Shown here: in pieces, positions 1,687-15,624 of the stretch | How positions within the stretch are numbered: position 1 is the first letter of the stretch | Layout: each line of letters starts with the position of its first letter | IMG/VR virus record: IMGVR_UViG_3300023296_000005 | Direction: 5' to 3' (one strand) | Source of the DNA: a virus | DNA: 35,853 nt | Position numbers and translations under genes: made by a program | The notes under the pieces: generated by a model | Told to the model about the DNA's origin: nothing | What the model saw: the letters and a program-made list of their open reading frames with translations, nothing else | The model's database searches: none

Positions 1687-2910
1687 ATGAAGAAGTTTTG
1701 GAAAGACGACCACTTAGACAATCTAATTATGGAACCGCTTGCAAATCTTGTAATAATGTACCCACACTTGAAACGAGAAAGCCTACGACGAAAAAAAATA
1801 ATGTACAAAGCAAAGGAACGCAATATGGAACGAGAGCCAACAAAGAGAGTGCTAAAAAAAGAGTGGGAAGTCTCGGCTTTTGACCGTGAAGCAAACGAGT
1901 GGACAACCACCATTAACCACGGCTACGAACACGAAAAGAACCCCGAAGATATAGCAGAAGTCTACAAACCCGTTGAAGCCGCTAAGATAAGCCCTACACG
2001 CCGCAAAGCCATACAGCGACTTGGCAAACGAGTCCTTATATACGGCGATGGTCAAGTTGGCTACAGGCGACGTATAGATGCCGTTACAGACGAACAAGAA
2101 CTAATCCCCACCCATAACATACCTATGCACAACATACTTCAACAGGTAAACGCTGTACATATGCCAGAGACAACCGTCAACCTCGGTGACTTTGCCGACT
2201 TCCCAGAGCTATCACGCTTTGACCCTGACTCTGACCACTTCCACAAGACTCTAGGTATGAGTATGCGCTACATCCACGACTTCTACGCACAGTTTGTTGC
2301 CGACAACCCTAAAGGGCATCACGTTGAGGTTGATTCTAACCACGCCATACGACCACGCAGACAGATACTTAAAAACATACCAGCCCTGTACGACTTTGTA
2401 CGCCCTGGCGAAGAAGACCCAAGTGCTATGCTTACCTACTACTACCTTGCTAATCTTGGCAAGCTAGGCATTGACTTCAAGTCAGGCTACGGTGGAGCAG
2501 AGTACGTGTACGGCACTGAGTACGACGCAGCACCCGTTATCTTCAAACACGGCAACCACTCGTCATCAGCCCCAGGCACAACAGTACGCAAGGAGTCACT
2601 ACAGAACCCCGAAGTACACGTTTTAAGAGGTCACGGACACAACGACGAGGAAATACGAGTTACCCGTCGTGATGGCTCAGTTCTTATATACAAGCAGTTC
2701 GGTAGCAGTTGCCTGAACGATGGACCTACACCTGGCTATGCTAACTCAATTGATGACGAAAACCGACCAGTTAAATATCACAACCAGAACCACCAGAACA
2801 CCTTTGGTATGCTTGACGATCACGAAGATGGAACGTACACGCTACACACCATTGATGTCGTAAACGGTAAAGCAAGGTTTGAGGGCAAAGAATATAATGG
2901 AAACATCTGA
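1687..2910 (+). CDS. Divergent calcineurin-like metallophosphoesterase-fold protein (tentative)
   Basis: The ATG at 1687 is preceded by GGGAGA, so I prefer it to the track start at 1654. Motif series: IYGDGQVG, LGDFADF, SNHA, KHGNHS, RGHGHND. Confidence 0.45.
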   Translation: MKKFWKDDHLDNLIMEPLANLVIMYPHLKRESLRRKKIMYKAKERNMEREPTKRVLKKEWEVSAFDREANEWTTTINHGYEHEKNPEDIAEVYKPVEAAKISPTRRKAIQRLGKRVLIYGDGQVGYRRRIDAVTDEQELIPTHNIPMHNILQQVNAVHMPETTVNLGDFADFPELSRFDPDSDHFHKTLGMSMRYIHDFYAQFVADNPKGHHVEVDSNHAIRPRRQILKNIPALYDFVRPGEEDPSAMLTYYYLANLGKLGIDFKSGYGGAEYVYGTEYDAAPVIFKHGNHSSSAPGTTVRKESLQNPEVHVLRGHGHNDEEIRVTRRDGSVLIYKQFGSSCLNDGPTPGYANSIDDENRPVKYHNQNHQNTFGMLDDHEDGTYTLHTIDVVNGKARFEGKEYNGNI

Positions 2911-3121
2911 ACCAACTGATTACAATATAAACGAACACGACCACGTTAACTGGCCAGATGAAAAGCTGGATAGGGAACTTGCAACATGCGACCTATTGCT
3001 AGACCGCTGGCAGGTATCAGAAGAACGACGCAAGCAGATAGGGCTTAGGGCTTTACTTGCCCGTGAGGAGTCCATACACCGCTATGCAGAGCGTTATCAG
3101 GATAAACACGAAAATGAGTGA
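2897..3121 (+). CDS. Hypothetical protein
   Basis: In-frame ATG at 2897 overlaps the upstream stop. About 74 aa. Confidence 0.55.
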   Translation: METSEPTDYNINEHDHVNWPDEKLDRELATCDLLLDRWQVSEERRKQIGLRALLAREESIHRYAERYQDKHENE

Positions 3122-3124
3122 ACG

Positions 3125-3133
3125 TGGTATAAT
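3125..3133 (+). promoter_or_regulatory. Extended -10 promoter element TGgTATAAT upstream of the methyltransferase
   Basis: TGGTATAAT is followed by the leader CATACAAAAGGGGA and the ATG at 3157. Confidence 0.45.
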
Positions 3134-3156
3134 GCTTACATACAAAAGGGGATTAT

Positions 3157-4995
3157 ATGATAATTAACGGCGACAGTATGGAAGTATTAAAAACACTGGA
3201 CGAAAACTCGGTAGACTCAATTGTTACCGATCCGCCCTATGGTTTATCATTTATGGGTAAAGCCTGGGATCACTCAGTACCTAGTGCTGAATTGTGGCAA
3301 GAAGCCCTTAGGGTGTTAAAGCCTGGTGGCTATCTACTAGCATTCGCAGGAACTCGCACCCAACACCGTATGGCTGTAAACATAGAGGACGCAGGCTTTG
3401 AGATAAGAGACATGATAGCTTGGGTGTATGGTTGTCTAAGCGAAGATACCGAAATACTAACTAAGGACGGGTGGAAACTGTACCATAAAAACATATTATC
3501 TGATAGCGTACTATGCTATAATATAGACAATGACACCTACGAATACAACCAACCAACTAAAAAATACTGGTACAGAAACGAACATACCGCCTACAGCATT
3601 AAGTCAGATACTACAGACCAAATCGTCAGTAGAAACCATCGTGTTATTGTTGAACGAAACGGAAGAAAAGAGTTTGCCTACGCCGAAACACTGGAACGCC
3701 AAGAGGGTGTACCCGTACTGGAAAGCCTGTCTAGTTTGCCAGACACCATTTATGACGTACACCAAAGAGCAAGCACAACGAAACAAGACTTGCTCAACCG
3801 AGTGTGCGAACAAGATGATAGGCAAAGCCAACAGTGGGAAGAAGCAGACAAAACAGAAGTGTCCAGTCTGCGAGCAGATGTTCTATCCAGCGAGCCAGAG
3901 CAAGAACAAGCCAAGAATAAACTGCTCAAGTATATGCAACGGTTACTTACGTGGCAAAGAGTGGGGTACACACGCCTACAAGGGCAGAGCCAACTGGACA
4001 CCAGAGAGCGAACTAGCACTCAAGCAACGAATGACGGGCGAAACGAATCCAAGCTGGAAGGGTGGAGTTACCTATCGCAACCGCAAGGGCAAATACGCCG
4101 AGCAAGCGATAAAATACGTCAGATGTCCAAAAGATTATTTAGCTATGGCGAGGACAGACGGCTATGTTATGGAACACCGACTATTAGTAGCTATGCAGAT
4201 GCAACGACCACTTACGAGAGCCGAGTGCGTACATCACATCAATCACGACGCAACGGACAACAGAATAGAGAACTTAATGCTATTCAAGACCAACGGGGAA
4301 CACAAGAGATACGAGTGGGGTCAAGCCATAGTACCACTTTGGCAACCGTAACACCAATTGAGTATAACGGTCATGTCTGGTGCGTTGAAGTGCCAACGGG
4401 TGCATTTGTAGCAAGGCGTAACGGTAAGGTATTTATTACAGGCAACTCAGGCTTCCCTAAAAGCCATAATATAGGCAAGGCTGTGGATAAGATGCAGGGT
4501 AATGAGAGGGAAGTAAGTGGTACTGGTACTGCTGGTGCTGGATTCAACAAGGTTAAAGGATTTGGTCAGAACACTACAAAAGGGGGAGAAGCTACTACTG
4601 AGTGGGATGAAACCAAAGGCACATCACCCCACGAAGGCTGGGGCACTGCACTTAAGCCTGCACTAGAACCTATAACAGTAGCTCGTAAACCATTCAAAGG
4701 TACAGTAGCAAACAACGTACTAGAGTGGGGTACAGGTGGTATCAATATAGATGGTTCGAGGGTAGGGACAGATATAATGCCAGCCGTAGAGATTAAACAT
4801 AGTTATGGTAATGGGAGCGATAATCATTTCGGCGGTGGAAAACCCAGAGGCAAAGTAACAACAACCCAAGAAGCACAAGGCAGATTCCCTGCTAACCTAA
4901 TACTGTCGTATCCAGAAGACGAGTACACACTAAAGGACAACGTAGCTCCTGATGAACTAAGAAAACTAGCGGAGTATTTAGATGCGAACGCCTAA
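3157..4995 (+). CDS. N6/N4 DNA methyltransferase, N-terminal gene fragment, containing an intein
   Basis: DPPYG catalytic motif. WVYG / SGFPKS is interrupted by a Hint element. Downstream motifs: ALKPALEPITVARKP, GGINIDGSRVG, GRFPANLIL. Confidence 0.85.
   Translation: MIINGDSMEVLKTLDENSVDSIVTDPPYGLSFMGKAWDHSVPSAELWQEALRVLKPGGYLLAFAGTRTQHRMAVNIEDAGFEIRDMIAWVYGCLSEDTEILTKDGWKLYHKNILSDSVLCYNIDNDTYEYNQPTKKYWYRNEHTAYSIKSDTTDQIVSRNHRVIVERNGRKEFAYAETLERQEGVPVLESLSSLPDTIYDVHQRASTTKQDLLNRVCEQDDRQSQQWEEADKTEVSSLRADVLSSEPEQEQAKNKLLKYMQRLLTWQRVGYTRLQGQSQLDTRERTSTQATNDGRNESKLEGWSYLSQPQGQIRRASDKIRQMSKRLFSYGEDRRLCYGTPTISSYADATTTYESRVRTSHQSRRNGQQNRELNAIQDQRGTQEIRVGSSHSTTLATVTPIEYNGHVWCVEVPTGAFVARRNGKVFITGNSGFPKSHNIGKAVDKMQGNEREVSGTGTAGAGFNKVKGFGQNTTKGGEATTEWDETKGTSPHEGWGTALKPALEPITVARKPFKGTVANNVLEWGTGGINIDGSRVGTDIMPAVEIKHSYGNGSDNHFGGGKPRGKVTTTQEAQGRFPANLILSYPEDEYTLKDNVAPDELRKLAEYLDANA
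3433..4446 (+). mobile_element. Intein (338 codons) inserted between WVYG and SGFPKS
   Basis: Starts CLSEDTEILTKDGW. Has a block-B-like VSRNHRVIV. Ends HVWCVEVPTGAFVARRNGKVFITGN with Ser at +1. Excision restores a contiguous conserved motif. Confidence 0.8.
3530..4351 (+). CDS. HNH homing endonuclease in the +1 frame inside the intein (true start uncertain; a GTG at 3707 is possible)
   Basis: Two CxxC...CSxxC zinc ribbons, NPSWKGG, and HHINHDATDNRIENL. The stop falls at the start of the C-terminal Hint block. Confidence 0.75.
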   Translation: MTPTNTTNQLKNTGTETNIPPTALSQILQTKSSVETIVLLLNETEEKSLPTPKHWNAKRVYPYWKACLVCQTPFMTYTKEQAQRNKTCSTECANKMIGKANSGKKQTKQKCPVCEQMFYPASQSKNKPRINCSSICNGYLRGKEWGTHAYKGRANWTPESELALKQRMTGETNPSWKGGVTYRNRKGKYAEQAIKYVRCPKDYLAMARTDGYVMEHRLLVAMQMQRPLTRAECVHHINHDATDNRIENLMLFKTNGEHKRYEWGQAIVPLWQP

Positions 4996-5575
4996 TACTA
5001 ATTGCGACGTGTGTAATGCCGAGTTATACAGGCGACCAGGCGACCAAGCTAAGTTTAATTCAGTTTGCTGTAGGGGTTGTCGGTCAGAGCTATACAAGAA
5101 CAGAGAGCCATCACCCAACCTATTACTTGGCAGAGTTAAGGGCAATAACCATTTAACTGGTATTCCTAAAACAGAATTACACCGCAACAAGATGAAAAAG
5201 ATAATGAGTGAATGGTGTTCTAACAACACAGATAAGGTAGCCGAAAGAGCAAAGAAAACACGCATGGAAAACCACTATCTATGGAATGGTGGCTCAACTA
5301 TACTAAACCAAAAAATACGCAGAATGATAAATATGCGAAACTGGCAAAAAAGTGTCAAAAAAAGAGATGGCTATGTTTGTTTGTGCGGCTCTACCGAGAA
5401 CCTTGAAGCCGACCATATAGTAGAACTTAGAACACTATTGGTTGAACATAATATAAAATCAACCGAAGAAGCTAGGGCCTGTGTGGAGCTATGGGATATA
5501 TCAAACGGACAGACACTATGCCGTAAATGCCACTATGCCAAAGACGGTAGACAATTTAGAAAGGTAACCGCATGA
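4982..5575 (+). CDS. Free-standing HNH endonuclease that splits the methyltransferase gene
   Basis: CDVC...CCRGC ribbon. CLCGSTENLEADHIVE...NGQTLCRKCHYAK HNH motif. The start overlaps the upstream stop by 14 nt, and the stop overlaps the downstream ATG (ATGA). Confidence 0.85.
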   Translation: MRTPNTNCDVCNAELYRRPGDQAKFNSVCCRGCRSELYKNREPSPNLLLGRVKGNNHLTGIPKTELHRNKMKKIMSEWCSNNTDKVAERAKKTRMENHYLWNGGSTILNQKIRRMINMRNWQKSVKKRDGYVCLCGSTENLEADHIVELRTLLVEHNIKSTEEARACVELWDISNGQTLCRKCHYAKDGRQFRKVTA

Positions 5576-6504
5576 ACATCGACAAGACAACATTTGATAA
5601 ACTGCCAGATGAAATAAAGAGGCTATTTGTTAAAGCGCCCAATCCTGGTAGTGATGAGGTAGTAGGGTTGTTTCCTGATACTAAGACAAACTCAACGGGC
5701 AAGAATAGCCCATCAGATTATAATACTAAAAGTGTTTTTGGTGCTGGAACGGGTAGTGGTGCTAAGCCTTACGGTGGCGACTCTGGCTCTGCTGCTCGCT
5801 TTTTTTATTGTGCGAAAAGTTCAAAAGCAGAACGCAATAAAGGGCTTAACAGGCTTAACTGTGCTATAATAGATATATGCAAAGACGAAAATACGGAACA
5901 GGTCACATCACTCCTAAGGGATATATTAGAATCAATACCCAATTTGAACATAGACGAGTCTGGATTGAGGCTAACGGTGCAATACCCAAAGGATACTATG
6001 TCCACCATATTAACCACGATAAATCAGATAACCGACTTGAAAACCTACAGCTTGTTGATGCAATCACCCACAAGAGAATCCATGAAGGATGTATTGTCAA
6101 AGATGATGAATGGCTTAAGCCCTGTGGAGTCTGTAAAGAGTTTAAGCGAATTGACGATGACAACTGGTACTTCTCAAGAGAAGGGTGGATTAGCTACGGA
6201 AGATGTAAGAAATGCCATGTATCAAAGGTTGTTGAAGCTAAAAGACGAAAGCGAATGGAAGCCAAGAACCTCGACACATCCAACGGTTAAGCCAGTCCGC
6301 CTGATGCAATACCTAGTCAAGCTAGTAACACCAGTGGGCGGTATTGTCCTCGATCCATTTAACGGCTCAGGCACTACAGGCATAGCTTGTAAGCTCGAGG
6401 GCTTTGAATACGTGGGTATTGAGCTAGACCCAGAATACTGCACCCTATCAGAGGCTCGTATAGAGGCATGGGCAATAGAAGCAGAACAGGTAAGTATGCT
6501 ATGA
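5572..6504 (+). CDS. N6/N4 DNA methyltransferase, C-terminal gene fragment, with an inserted segment of about 140 aa
   Basis: GSDEVVGLFP, GDSGSAARFFYCAKSSKAERNKG, HPTVKPVRLMQYLVKLVTP, and VLDPFNGSGTTGIA (SAM-binding motif). Confidence 0.85.
   Translation: MNIDKTTFDKLPDEIKRLFVKAPNPGSDEVVGLFPDTKTNSTGKNSPSDYNTKSVFGAGTGSGAKPYGGDSGSAARFFYCAKSSKAERNKGLNRLNCAIIDICKDENTEQVTSLLRDILESIPNLNIDESGLRLTVQYPKDTMSTILTTINQITDLKTYSLLMQSPTRESMKDVLSKMMNGLSPVESVKSLSELTMTTGTSQEKGGLATEDVRNAMYQRLLKLKDESEWKPRTSTHPTVKPVRLMQYLVKLVTPVGGIVLDPFNGSGTTGIACKLEGFEYVGIELDPEYCTLSEARIEAWAIEAEQVSML
5877..6290 (+). CDS. HNH homing endonuclease (HNH_3-like) in an alternate frame inside the methyltransferase C-fragment
   Basis: GYIRI...EHRRVWIEANGAIPKGYYVHHINHDKSDNRLENL plus a CGVC...CKKCH ribbon. 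The stop lies within the host HPTVKP codons. Confidence 0.8.
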   Translation: MQRRKYGTGHITPKGYIRINTQFEHRRVWIEANGAIPKGYYVHHINHDKSDNRLENLQLVDAITHKRIHEGCIVKDDEWLKPCGVCKEFKRIDDDNWYFSREGWISYGRCKKCHVSKVVEAKRRKRMEAKNLDTSNG

Positions 6505-6842
6505 GTGAAGAAGACCCAACTATACGCATGAGCATAGGCTCTCACGAGTTTGACCTTAAACGTACTAACTCTGAAATATTCCACTTTATGGGTGCGCTGG
6601 CAGTGTACAATCACCTGTTTATTCTTGAAGATGAAACAGAAGATGTCAAAACAGGCAGGTTCATACCGCAAGAGCTAATAGGCAAAGAACCGTTCGACCA
6701 GGTTATGGGGCTAATGATAGAAAACGGCTACCCTGTACGCCTTAATCAACTTGAGGTTTCAGAAACAGACGCAGCAAACATTGAGCGAATACTTAAAGGC
6801 AACGACGCAGACGAAATACCCAACTGGTTGCCAGAGGTTTAG
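6501..6842 (+). CDS. Hypothetical protein
   Basis: The ATG at 6501 overlaps the methyltransferase stop (ATGA). 113 aa. Confidence 0.7.
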   Translation: MSEEDPTIRMSIGSHEFDLKRTNSEIFHFMGALAVYNHLFILEDETEDVKTGRFIPQELIGKEPFDQVMGLMIENGYPVRLNQLEVSETDAANIERILKGNDADEIPNWLPEV

Positions 6843-6844
6843 CG

Positions 6845-6853
6845 TGCTACAAT
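6845..6853 (+). promoter_or_regulatory. Extended -10-like element TGcTACAAT
   Basis: Sequence match only. Lies directly after the stop at 6842. Confidence 0.3.
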
Positions 6854-6952
6854 AAACACAACTGGATTAGTCACCAGGCGTTACTGTACGAGCTTTGACC
6901 GTGAAGCCCTGACTACAATAGCGTAAGATACAATTGACCACTGGCTTACGGT

Positions 6953-6990
6953 AAGGAAGCGTCTCTCCACGGGCGCTTTCTTTCTATTCT
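6953..6990 (+). terminator. Candidate intrinsic terminator
   Basis: An imperfect stem of about 12 bp (6953-6964 / 6971-6982, three G-U pairs) followed by a T-rich tract. Confidence 0.4.
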
Positions 6991-7046
6991 GTTTATAATT
7001 ATTTTTTGGTACTTTAAGTAGACCTCCTTTTCCGACTGTAAGCAGC

Positions 7047-7271
7047 GGGGAGTTAAGTATTAAAGCATTCCCTGAGTAAAGGTTGCAGTTCGGTTGTTCA
7101 GGGATAGCTTCATTAGCAACTCCCCTTATTAAACTTGTTAGTATATTAAGGTATTAAAGGCATGGTGTTAGTAGCAAGATGTTAAGTACCTATGCCGTCA
7201 TCAATCAGGCTTGTCCTCGTATCTTACTTTTGAGGCTTTAGGGCTTACTACCAACACTACTACCTTTAATA
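7047..7271 (+). ncRNA. Candidate structured non-coding RNA (two nested-helix domains)
   Basis: Pairings: GGGGAGTT 7047-7054 with AACTCCCC 7128-7135; inner 7069-7076 with 7097-7104; TATTAAAGG 7152-7160 with CCTTTAATA 7263-7271; 7163-7174 with 7248-7259. No ORF. Confidence 0.3.
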
Positions 7272-11880: not shown

Positions 11881-12651
11881 ATGACTAACACACTAGATGA
11901 GATATTTAACGAAGACTGCCTAGAGACTATGAAGCGTATGCAAGATAGCTCTATAGACCTAACTGTTACCTCACCACCATACGATAACCTCAGAACATAT
12001 AATGGCTTTGAGTTTGACTGGCACAAGACCATAGAGGAGTTGTACCGAGTCACAAAAGAAGGCGGTGTAGTTGTCTGGGTAGTAGGTGATGCAACTATCA
12101 AGGGTTCTGAGACAGGAACGAGTTTCAAACAGGCTCTTTATGCTATGGAGTGCGGATTTAACTTGCATGACACAATGATATATGAAAAAGCTCAAGCCTG
12201 TTTTGGGTCAAACAATTGTTATTTACAAGCCTTTGAGTATATGTTTATATTTGCAAAAGGGAAGCCGACCCGATTGAACTTTATCAGAGACCGTGAAAAC
12301 GTCAGAAGTGGAGTGGAATCAATGGGCAATGGTGGTATATCAAAAGATGGCGTTAAACCAAAACGTATAAAAAAAGAGATGAATAAGTTAGGCAAAAGAA
12401 AGAATATATGGAGGTTTGGTGTGGGCGGAGGAAATACGGGGCATCCAGCTATATTCCCCGAAAGACTAGCTCACGACCACATAATCTCTTGGAGCAACAA
12501 AGGCGATACGGTTTACGACCCATTTATGGGTAGTGGCACAACAGCAAAACTCGCCAAACAACTAAATCGTAAGTACATAGGCAGTGAGATAAGCAAAGAA
12601 TACTGCGATATAGCAAATGACCGCCTAACCCAACTAAAGGAGAATAAGTAA
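11881..12651 (+). CDS. DNA methyltransferase, beta-class N4-C/N6-A (SPPY)
   Basis: TSPPYDNLRTY, HPAIFPERLA, DPFMGSGTTAKLA. RBS GAGGAGGAG. Confidence 0.85.
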   Translation: MTNTLDEIFNEDCLETMKRMQDSSIDLTVTSPPYDNLRTYNGFEFDWHKTIEELYRVTKEGGVVVWVVGDATIKGSETGTSFKQALYAMECGFNLHDTMIYEKAQACFGSNNCYLQAFEYMFIFAKGKPTRLNFIRDRENVRSGVESMGNGGISKDGVKPKRIKKEMNKLGKRKNIWRFGVGGGNTGHPAIFPERLAHDHIISWSNKGDTVYDPFMGSGTTAKLAKQLNRKYIGSEISKEYCDIANDRLTQLKENK

Positions 12652-14333: not shown

Positions 14334-14431
14334 ACGAAAAACTAGCCATGTTCCTATTCTTTGCAATTACTATTGTAGGTACGGCATTGCTGCTGTTGCC
14401 ATTTGTATACTTAATCGGAGGGATGTTGTAA
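14330..14431 (+). CDS. 33-aa single-TM peptide
   Basis: AAGGAGA RBS. Peptide: MNEKLAMFLFFAITIVGTALLLLPFVYLIGGML. TAATG overlap with the next gene. Confidence 0.5.
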   Translation: MNEKLAMFLFFAITIVGTALLLLPFVYLIGGML

Positions 14432-14817
14432 TGCGTGATATTAAGTTTAGAGCGTGGGACACAGTAGATAATAATTACTGGCAAGGTATTTACTTGCAGT
14501 CCGTACCTGCTATGTATTTGCCGCCAAAGTTCAAGCAAAACGAACACGCACTTGTTTGGCAACAATACACAGGAATTAAAGATAAAAATGGCGTAGAGAT
14601 ATACGAGGGAGATATAATTTCTTTAATTCGCTGTTTAGACAAACACTTTATTTGTATGTGCAATAAACTGCCAGACAAAGATTTTACTGACGTAGTTATA
14701 TTTGAAAACGGTGCGTTTACCTGTAATGAATTGGGTAATATACCTGATTATTACGAAGTCATAGGCAACATATATGAGCACGGTTATTTACTGGAAAACG
14801 AAAGCAAAAAGGTGTAA
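14431..14817 (+). CDS. YopX-family protein
   Basis: MRDIKFRAWD...QQYTGIKDKNGVEIYEGDII...EVIGNIYEH. Confidence 0.8.
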   Translation: MRDIKFRAWDTVDNNYWQGIYLQSVPAMYLPPKFKQNEHALVWQQYTGIKDKNGVEIYEGDIISLIRCLDKHFICMCNKLPDKDFTDVVIFENGAFTCNELGNIPDYYEVIGNIYEHGYLLENESKKV

Positions 14818-14826
14818 AATGATAGT

Positions 14827-15318
14827 ATGCACTCAAAAGAAACTCGAAAAAAAATTGGCGACGCACTCAGAAAAGAAAAAAAGTTCAACTGTGATTACTG
14901 TAAAAAAGAATCTGTTACAAAACCATCCCATTATGCCAGAAAGAAAAAGCATTACTGCTCAAGGCTGTGCTACTCAAATGACAGGGAATATAACTATAAG
15001 TCCCACGAACAAAACTCTTGGAAGGGTGGGATTAGCAGCTATGAGTCTCATAAAAAATGGGTGTCAAAGAATAAAGAACGTATGTCGCACCTCAAGGCAA
15101 GACGCTACGCAAGAGAAAAGGGGGCTGAGGGTTTTCACACTCTTGAAGAATGGCAAAGACTTAAAAGCATTTATAATGATAGGTGCGCTTTTTGCAAAGA
15201 AAGTAAGTTACTCACAAAAGACCATGTTATGCCACTATCAAAAGGCGGCTCAGACTATATTACTAACATACAGCCACTATGCAGAAATTGTAATAGTAAA
15301 AAGTCGGCTAAGTTTTGA
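14827..15318 (+). CDS. HNH endonuclease, the fourth in this genome
   Basis: CDYC...CSRLC ribbon, NSWKGG, CAFC...DHVMPLSKGGSD...NIQPLCRNCNSKK. Confidence 0.85.
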   Translation: MHSKETRKKIGDALRKEKKFNCDYCKKESVTKPSHYARKKKHYCSRLCYSNDREYNYKSHEQNSWKGGISSYESHKKWVSKNKERMSHLKARRYAREKGAEGFHTLEEWQRLKSIYNDRCAFCKESKLLTKDHVMPLSKGGSDYITNIQPLCRNCNSKKSAKF

Positions 15319-15357
15319 CATATACGAAACCCCTGAACTATTAAAGGAGGCAGCGTA

Positions 15358-15624
15358 ATGGACATAAACAAACTAATGGAACGCTATAACATATCCCACG
15401 GTATTGAAAACGACCAGGTGGACATAGACATGTTTAAGGCAGAACTTGCGGAGACAATTGCAACCGAGAAACTAGACACCGCTTACGAGATCACGCTAAA
15501 GTACGCCTGTATGAGCAAATGGCAACTACTACGCACAGACTTTAACCACGACTTAGATCGCATGGAAGATGAACTTGGAGAGCGCATGGAAGATGAACTT
15601 TGTATATGGGAGTGCAAGCTATGA
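15358..15624 (+). CDS. Hypothetical protein containing a 24-nt tandem duplication (RMEDELGE/RMEDELCI)
   Basis: RBS AAGGAGG. Repeat copies at 15559-15576 and 15583-15600. Confidence 0.7.
   Translation: MDINKLMERYNISHGIENDQVDIDMFKAELAETIATEKLDTAYEITLKYACMSKWQLLRTDFNHDLDRMEDELGERMEDELCIWECKL

Follow-up and report, generated by a model that had tools for sequence, protein, structure and literature searches.

The viral record IMGVR_UViG_3300023296_000005 of IMG/VR, of which one strand of 35,853 nucleotides (nt) was analysed and is referred to here as the window, contains a split DNA methyltransferase (methylase) gene whose C-terminal fragment encloses, in a different reading frame, a complete HNH nuclease gene, and the frame of the methylase stays open through the whole of it. 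This nested gene, the cassette that carries it and the host gene around it are the subject of the present analysis. The features of the locus are as follows.

5572-6504, + strand: open reading frame (ORF) of the host methylase C-fragment, 310 amino acids (aa), matching Pfam N6_N4_Mtase (PF01555) at E=1e-21 over residues 217-293
5797-5847, + strand: conserved host motif RFFYCAKSSKAERNKGL, the last stretch in common with insertion-free alleles, marking the 5' boundary of the cassette in the alignment
5848-6270, + strand: inserted cassette of about 425 nt, delimited by DNA alignment against the alleles L141 and L142; its host-frame peptide has no known domain
5860-5870, + strand: TGTGCTATAAT, which fits the extended -10 pattern TGnTATAAT and ends 6 nt before the HNH ATG at 5877
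5877-6290, + strand: nested HNH_3 endonuclease gene, 137 aa, with an HNH core followed by a C-terminal CxxC...CxxC zinc ribbon
6277-6294, + strand: host motif X, HPTVKP, whose GTT-AAG codons (V-K) supply the HNH stop at 6288-6290
6352-6378, + strand: host motif I, DPFNGSGTT, which binds S-adenosylmethionine (AdoMet), intact and 3' of the insert

Judged by its motifs, ORF 5572-6504 is the C-terminal fragment of a split beta-class N6/N4 DNA methyltransferase of predicted activity. The beta-class motif order is kept across the pieces, with motif IV (DPPY, as DPPYG) in the N-fragment and motifs X and then I in the C-fragment, and a Foldseek comparison matches the last ~65 aa of the C-fragment to the beta-class methyltransferases M.BceJIV, M1.HpyAVI, CcrM and M.RsrI. 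The gene lies in pieces here, consisting of an N-fragment (3157-4995) that contains an intein (3433-4446), a first HNH gene (4982-5575) and the C-fragment, whose ATG overlaps the TGA of that HNH gene as ATGA. A first-pass annotation, made from the letters of the window, had drawn attention to the nested gene and implied that an arrangement of this kind was new. That implication no longer holds, because a homologous methylase of mycobacteriophage ShiLan was reported in 2025 to contain an element of this kind (Arsenault, Gosselin & Gogarten 2025, Genes 16:178, PMC11855218).

The nested HNH gene

ORF 5877-6290 lies wholly within ORF 5572-6504, and (5877-5572) mod 3 = 2; the HNH gene is thus in frame +2 relative to its host, and the host in frame +1 relative to the HNH gene. 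The first-pass description of an HNH_3 enzyme with a CxxC ribbon, nested 2 nt out of phase, is borne out by Pfam: the inner ORF matches HNH_3 (PF13392) over residues 25-60 at E=2.6e-15, with 56.2 bits against a cutoff of 24.8. Residues of catalytic type are present at H43, H44, N52, N56, H65 and H69, together with the cysteine pairs C83xxC86 and C110xxC113; in an alignment of six members of the family the listed histidines and cysteines are invariant, while N52 and N56 are not flagged as such.

The gene ends where the annotation had placed its stop, inside the HPTVKP codons, the TAA at 6288-6290 spanning the host codons GTT-AAG. Alleles that lack the insertion have the same GTTAAG; the host itself thus contributes the stop and the last five codons of the HNH gene, and among relatives the HNH stop always falls within motif X or at most ~5 codons from it. 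Selection was estimated with an OLGenie-style count on 36 independent pairs drawn from 79 unique sequences. The ratio of nonsynonymous to synonymous substitution (dN/dS) in the HNH frame is 0.13 across relatives (95% confidence interval (CI) 0.10-0.18), as expected of a functional gene under strong purifying selection, and the methylase flanks are also under purifying selection, with ratios of 0.17 and 0.35.

An open host frame that is not due to chance

The host frame runs without a stop through the 138 codons of the HNH gene, as the first-pass annotation had noted, and the third frame contains 23 stops. The 22 other ORFs of the window have 6.3 stops per 100 codons in their +1 frame, and their longest stop-free run in an alternative frame is 89 codons; at this rate ~8.7 stops would be expected in the host frame, against none seen (Poisson P ~2e-4). 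The two alternative frames of the free-standing HNH gene at 4982-5575 contain 12 and 20 stops. When the HNH codons were shuffled synonymously, a check that the annotation had proposed, 2.7% of the shuffles reached zero host-frame stops (mean 2.0); the result points in the proposed direction, but it carries little weight by itself, since the HNH amino-acid sequence contains few stop-prone codon pairs to begin with.

The comparison with relatives is far more telling. These were collected with an HNH protein alignment (A2) as the query and not with the host, which avoids ascertainment through the host frame. The query matched 219 stretches in metagenomes, 80 of which were examined, and 36 in viral contigs; de-duplication left 87 unique HNH regions that are 49-100% identical to the nearest of six query sequences, and a relative was counted as nested when motif X or motif I followed downstream in the +1 frame. 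By this measure 84 of the 87 share the methylase site of the window. Host-frame stops in related genomes, which the first-pass annotation had named as the evidence that would speak against it, are found in none of these 84, whereas the third frame has a mean of 14. L024, L053-L059, L087 and L124 all have open host frames. Two relatives that lie outside the methylase have stops in the corresponding frame, one in L033 and seven in L127. Free-standing relatives therefore gather host-frame stops, and the open frame is not an intrinsic property of the HNH sequence. The openness of the host frame is not a chance outcome: the evidence from within the window is moderate, and the comparative evidence is decisive.

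The two relatives outside the methylase have settings of their own. The HNH region of L033 (317-826) is flanked by an apparent decayed remnant of the read-through frame, and that of L127 (2498-2896) lies directly 5' of a different methylase gene. They may represent a free-standing source of the cassette, or a state in which it has escaped from its host.

Cassette boundaries, mobility and distribution

The first-pass annotation described a short variable loop in homologues where the window has a gap of about 150 aa. The enlarged gap is real, with 143 aa separating ERNKGL from HPTVKP in the window against ~30 aa in the closest insertion-free alleles (L141/P0019 and L142/P0023); the methylase of Rhizobium phage RHph_X2_25 lacks the insertion too. 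The short loop holds for such insertion-free homologues, which are common, but not for homologues at large, many of which carry the same ~140-aa insertion. The 5' junction lies just past ERNKGL, somewhere in ~5847-5860, and the 3' boundary just before THPTVKP at ~6270. Between them a native loop of ~30 codons (~87-90 nt) has been replaced by the cassette, for a net gain of ~113 residues.

Inserts and flanks have had different histories. There are 28 pairs of sequences in which the inserts are at least 95% identical and the flanks on both sides are only 74-76% identical, and no pair in which the converse is true. The window and L002 have inserts that are 97% identical, in flanks of 77% and 88% identity; L141, which lacks the insertion, is no more distant from L002 than the window is (82-85% and 90%), and presence or absence of the cassette varies among alleles that are 82-90% identical. 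Near-identical inserts in diverged flanks, together with the existence of insertion-free alleles, indicate that the cassette is mobile. The family is essentially absent from cellular genomes, as a search of 185,579 of them found one relative, on a 1.2-kb contig of a metagenome-assembled genome. A megablast of positions 3000-7000 against 50,697 phage records found no near-identical genome.

Splicing, bypassing and frameshifting

Homing endonuclease genes usually ride in introns or inteins, and the same methylase gene has a canonical-looking intein at 3433-4446. It might therefore be supposed that the nested insert too is removed from the product, whether as an unrecognised intron, as an intein of non-canonical type or through translational bypassing, and that the open frame is secondary. 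The sequence offers little for such a process to act on. An Rfam scan of 2800-7200 on both strands found no intron or other RNA family at E<=1, and the HNH ORF takes up all but ~30 nt of the cassette, so that an intron core would not fit; a group I or group II intron was rejected on these two grounds. The host-frame insert peptide, running from ...GLNRLNCAII... to ...KPRTST/HPTVKP, has no Pfam match at E<=1, Hint and intein families included, and shows neither Cys/Ser/Thr...His-Asn boundaries nor the context of a C-extein nucleophile. An intein was thus rejected as well, and the first-pass statement that intein hallmarks are lacking stands. The authors of the ShiLan report reached the same negative result for their element (PMC11855218). 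Moreover, neither RNA splicing nor bypassing would depend on an open host frame, which is nevertheless kept by all 84 nested copies. Removal of the insert by any of these routes is very unlikely, and the insert is probably retained in the mature methylase.

A second way to connect the two frames would be a programmed -1 ribosomal frameshift, by which the HNH protein would be made as a fusion to the N-terminal part of the methylase. The HNH frame is indeed the -1 frame relative to the host. However, it is closed by a stop 6 codons upstream of the HNH ATG, and no slippery heptamer of the form X-XXY-YYZ was seen by eye in the short stretch between that stop and the ATG, which together make a frameshift fusion unlikely. 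An ATG near the expected start is found in all 78 relatives with enough upstream sequence (the nearest ATG having been chosen by the script), most of them with a Shine-Dalgarno sequence. A frameshift origin of the HNH protein is, on this evidence, almost certainly wrong.

The read-through peptide

Retention of the insert raises the question of what the methylase does with it. AlphaFold2, given a 50-sequence alignment, models the window C-fragment with a mean predicted local distance difference test score (pLDDT) of 72.5 and a confident methylase core. The first half of the insert (residues ~92-160) is predicted as a beta-alpha-beta-beta-alpha unit with a pLDDT of 80-90, and the next ~50 residues score ~53. 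In the full-length homologue P0013 the topology is the same, with the unit at 65-80 and the centre at 37-46. The first-pass annotation had called the insert a large loop, a label that suits the low-confidence stretch but not the moderately confident unit before it.

It is conceivable, then, that the read-through peptide is a folded and selected module of the methylase, so that the overlap would be truly dual in function. Such a module would sit at the junction of the target-recognition region and motif X and affect methylase function or regulation, and overprinting would have given birth to a domain, repeatedly and at several sites. The prediction of one and the same unit in two contexts, the window C-fragment and P0013, speaks for this possibility, as does a naive host-frame dNN/dNS within the insert of 0.50 (CI 0.45-0.57), compared with 0.99-1.04 in the non-coding +1 frame of the flanks. 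A null simulation that imposes selection only on HNH residues, column by column, together with avoidance of stops already yields 0.52-0.62 without any selection on the peptide. Nor does the signal follow the AlphaFold2 confidence along the insert: it is broadly uniform, with 0.37-0.54 in four of five segments, and stands at 1.43 over the first 20 codons. The naive ratio was for these reasons rejected as proof of peptide selection. The dSN/dSS estimator was disregarded, as it draws on only 88 sites of a peculiar class (first positions of Leu and Arg codons). The central ~50 residues are predicted with low confidence in both contexts (pLDDT 37-57), the insert has no fold match in a Foldseek search of the PDB and no Pfam family match, and alleles that do without the insertion are common. 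Selection on the read-through peptide is unproven, and a selected module is an unlikely account of the insert.

Internal expression signals

If the HNH protein is made in its own right, the signals for its expression would have to lie inside the methylase coding sequence, and candidates are found there. Of 78 relatives, 46 have a GGAG-type Shine-Dalgarno core, read as Gly-Gly in the host frame, positioned 6-7 nt ahead of the HNH ATG. A TATAAT occurs at most 50 nt upstream of the HNH start in 49 of 78, usually at 20-29 nt, and is read by the host as K-Y-N. The codons of this K-Y-N box are strongly biased, with Tyr as TAT in 46 of 51 and Asn as AAT in 51 of 51, compared with 58% and 55% elsewhere in the same genes, which suggests selection at the nucleotide level. 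In the window there is no Shine-Dalgarno sequence between TGTGCTATAAT and the HNH ATG; the closest subfamily keeps the box as TGTGCTAnAAT. TGTGCTATAAT is accordingly a candidate internal promoter that could give rise to a leaderless or near-leaderless HNH mRNA.

A mobile cassette probably translated through by its host

The explanation that we consider very probable is that the element is a mobile homing HNH cassette, translated through in the frame of its host, with the HNH protein expressed from internal signals. It builds on the anatomy of the locus, the conserved openness of the host frame, the purifying selection seen in the HNH gene, the mobility of the cassette and the lack of an intron or intein signature. 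A ~425-bp HNH cassette would have taken the place of the variable loop between FFYCAK...ERNxGL and HPTVKP (motif X). The HNH gene would be read from its own ATG in the +2 frame as far as the TAA that the host GTT-AAG provides, and ribosomes translating the methylase would pass through the same DNA in the host frame, so that both products would be made with no need for RNA or protein splicing. The resulting methylase would carry ~113 extra residues at a permissive position and would presumably remain active with them. Copies that gained a host-frame stop would inactivate the methylase and be lost, which would explain why every nested copy found has an open host frame.

The HNH protein would be made from signals inside the methylase coding sequence. 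In most relatives these would be a TATAAT box and then, 6-7 nt ahead of the ATG, a GGAGG ribosome-binding site; in the subfamily of the window, a TGnTATAAT box 6 nt before the ATG, with no ribosome-binding site, would fit transcription from an internal promoter and a leaderless start. The presumed targets of the nuclease are alleles without the insertion, cut close to the conserved motifs, and the cassette would then be copied in by recombinational repair, that is, by homing.

Several points weigh against this explanation. In the window the methylase also contains an intein and is broken in two by another HNH gene, and a second N6_N4 DNA methyltransferase, uninterrupted, lies at 11881-12651 (256 aa, Pfam E=1.4e-42), so the copy represented by the C-fragment could be dispensable or already inactive. 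The synonymous-shuffle test within the window reaches only P=0.027. The cassette substitutes for the native loop and is not a simple insertion, so the exact homing site cannot be read off. As for the internal signals, the codon-usage counts and P values ignore the relatedness of the sequences, and a sigma-70 scan for -35/-10 consensus did not call TGTGCTATAAT and found no -35 element, with a count of matches no better than in shuffled sequence. With the consensus scan negative, the idea of a promoter draws on conservation only.

Taken to their end, the three-piece gene, the second methylase and the modest shuffle P value would make the C-fragment a dead remnant whose open host frame is inherited or accidental. 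The family as a whole does not behave in this manner. The methylase flanks are under purifying selection across it, free-standing HNH relatives do accumulate host-frame stops, and in the window itself motifs X and I of the C-fragment are intact and its ATG is coupled to the upstream ORF through the ATGA overlap. A dead remnant is highly improbable, even more so than removal of the insert by splicing or bypassing, and a mobile cassette translated through by a methylase remains the strongly preferred explanation.

Other nuclease genes of the window and of the methylase family

The HNH gene at 4982-5575 is free-standing, encodes 197 aa and splits the methylase between GRFPANLI and GSDEVVGLFP, with its ATG overlapping the 3' end of the N-fragment; it has no relative among the 50,697 phage records. 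A similar motif is found at both new termini of the methylase, APDELRKLAEYL on the tail of the N-fragment and LPDEIKRLFVKA on the head of the C-fragment, and the two might have arisen by duplication of a target, or might form helices that associate with each other. The metagenome C-fragments P0004, P0006-P0008 and P0012 begin at the same split point as that of the window.

The intein of the N-fragment (3433-4446; CLSEDTEIL...VFITGN/SGFPKS) also encodes an HNH_3 ORF out of frame (3530-4351, 273 aa). The intein frame has no stop in the 274 codons over this ORF, an outcome matched by none of 20,000 synonymous shuffles (mean 11.5 stops), and L056, L084 and L085 have inteins arranged in the same way. 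At this intein site, ShiLan gp65 and L078 encode a LAGLIDADG in frame. In the 484-kb genome of an uncultured phage, LR756508.1, positions 299887-301716 match 97% of the window N-fragment in one piece at 39% identity, in a match that spans the intein and its read-through region; this jumbo phage may have the same arrangement of intein and out-of-frame HNH.

A fourth HNH gene of the window (14827-15318; HNH_5, E=3e-12) is wholly covered by an open alternative frame at 14765-15358, which has no stops (synonymous-shuffle P=0.0016). Just upstream lies ORF 14431-14817, YopX-like by eye, which ends in VIGNIYEHGYLLE; the open alternative frame ends in DIYETPELLKEAA, like a second copy of the VIGNIYEHGYLLE C-terminus in another frame.

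Within the methylase family, other HNH lineages are nested at other sites, with up to three nested HNH ORFs per gene. Single methylase ORFs of 640-1040 aa contain two or three nested out-of-frame ORFs bearing HNH-like motifs, examples being L003 1208-3667, L046 570-3095, L085 30-3116, L029 and L107. Lineages and sites differ among them and both alternative frames are used, and the host frame is open throughout in all. The first nested ORF of L003, the only one of this set checked with Pfam, matches HNH/HNH_2. In four contigs for which gene calls of the source assembly were seen (L017, L018, L019 and L021), the methylase is called as one long gene and the nested HNH is never called.

Implications

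Homing endonuclease genes have classically been held to survive in essential coding sequence only by way of self-splicing introns and inteins, or to reside between genes. The ShiLan report, built on a few mycobacteriophages, proposed a third route: the element is simply translated by its host in another frame (PMC11855218). The present data extend this route outside actinophages and to several HNH lineages, and place it at four or more sites of one methylase family, one of them inside an intein. The open frame is kept without exception in 84 independent-looking copies and decays in free-standing ones. What is added here is a demonstration of the open-frame constraint that is independent of the host, with free-standing relatives as natural controls; a quantified mobility; ribosome-binding sites encoded inside the host frame; and methylases with two or three nested HNH genes in both alternative frames. 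If the missed calls in the four contigs are general, nested nucleases will be largely missing from protein databases, and methylases will be annotated with unexplained "domains". The system is also a natural test-bed for how much arbitrary sequence a protein loop tolerates.

Comparison with known systems

The HNH endonucleases of group I introns, such as I-HmuI (PDB 1U3E; a comparator in PMC11855218), resemble the element of the window in being HNH homing endonucleases inside a conserved phage gene. They differ in that the window has no intron RNA, the flanking sequence outside the ORF being too short for one. Free-standing endonucleases that split genes are another point of reference. In phage Aeh1, mobE reportedly splits nrdA, and T4 gene 60 is said to have a mobA/bypass cassette. 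The fractured genes of Dassa et al. (2009), as presented in a paper that cites them, are also of this kind. In these cases, as here, a selfish nuclease invades a conserved gene and host function is preserved by some device, and the HNH gene at 4982-5575 splits the methylase of the window in just that way; however, such endonucleases break the host frame, with two polypeptides or bypassing as the result, whereas the nested HNH gene leaves it continuous.

A closer parallel is offered by inteins with an out-of-frame or antisense homing endonuclease, attributed to Gorbalenya (1998) in the preprints that cite it and described further for cyanobacterial dnaX (bioRxiv 10.64898/2026.09.14.751524) and for actinophage (bioRxiv 10.1101/2025.01.02.630785). 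There too the endonuclease is overprinted on an open host frame, and purifying selection is concentrated in the endonuclease frame. The read-through peptide of those elements is spliced out, while no splicing domain flanks the insert of the window, and the out-of-frame endonucleases of the cited preprints are endonuclease VII-like or LAGLIDADG enzymes, not HNH. Pacc40 gp60 (PMC11855218) likewise has an out-of-frame HNH-like ORF in a phage methylase with an open host frame, and free-standing relatives beside methylase genes, to which L127 is comparable; by its description, it differs in methylase family, insertion site and endonuclease lineage. The candidate KSSJEB gp67 was rejected as a carrier of a ShiLan-type element, being a compact methylase.

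The closest counterpart is the ShiLan domain of the gp65 methylase, first noted in PMC9957025. This insertion, 202 aa long and free of host-frame stops, conceals an HNH of 195 aa in the third frame. Neither an intron nor an intein, it is predicted to form a protruding hairpin and has a homing-like distribution, and its authors propose leaderless translation of the hidden HNH (PMC11855218). The host methylases are homologous, the N-fragment of the window being 49.6% identical to gp65, and both have an intein at the same WxYG/C...FITGN/SGFPKS site. In both elements the host frame is open, the HNH lies in the third frame (+2) with its stop at the far 3' end of the insert, no intron or intein signature is present, the disjunct distribution implies homing, AlphaFold2 renders the read-through peptide as partly structured but mostly of low confidence, and the HNH belongs to HNH_3.

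The two are nevertheless distinct. The ShiLan site is inside GWGTALKPxxEP...ARKP, whereas that of the window is between FFYCAK...ERNxGL and HPTVKP. The ShiLan HNH has 195 aa with a zinc finger on each side, that of the window 137 aa with one zinc ribbon after the HNH, and they share 35% identity over 62 aa of the HNH_3 core only. ShiLan uses a GTG with no detectable ribosome-binding site, compared with an ATG and, in most relatives, a clear Shine-Dalgarno sequence here; and elements of the window type occur in uncultured, non-actinobacterial phage contigs and are almost absent from cellular genomes. Copies at the ShiLan site also occur in the present metagenomic methylase family (L046 and L078). 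In ShiLan itself (L140, 1168-4441), gp65 ends shortly after its RFF...AK...ER motif and an 83-aa "methyltransferase" ORF, gp67, follows ~140 nt later, so that the ShiLan methylase appears to be split at the same position where that of the window carries the nested HNH gene. The element of the window follows the same strategy as that of ShiLan, in the same family of host enzymes, but both its site and its HNH lineage are new.

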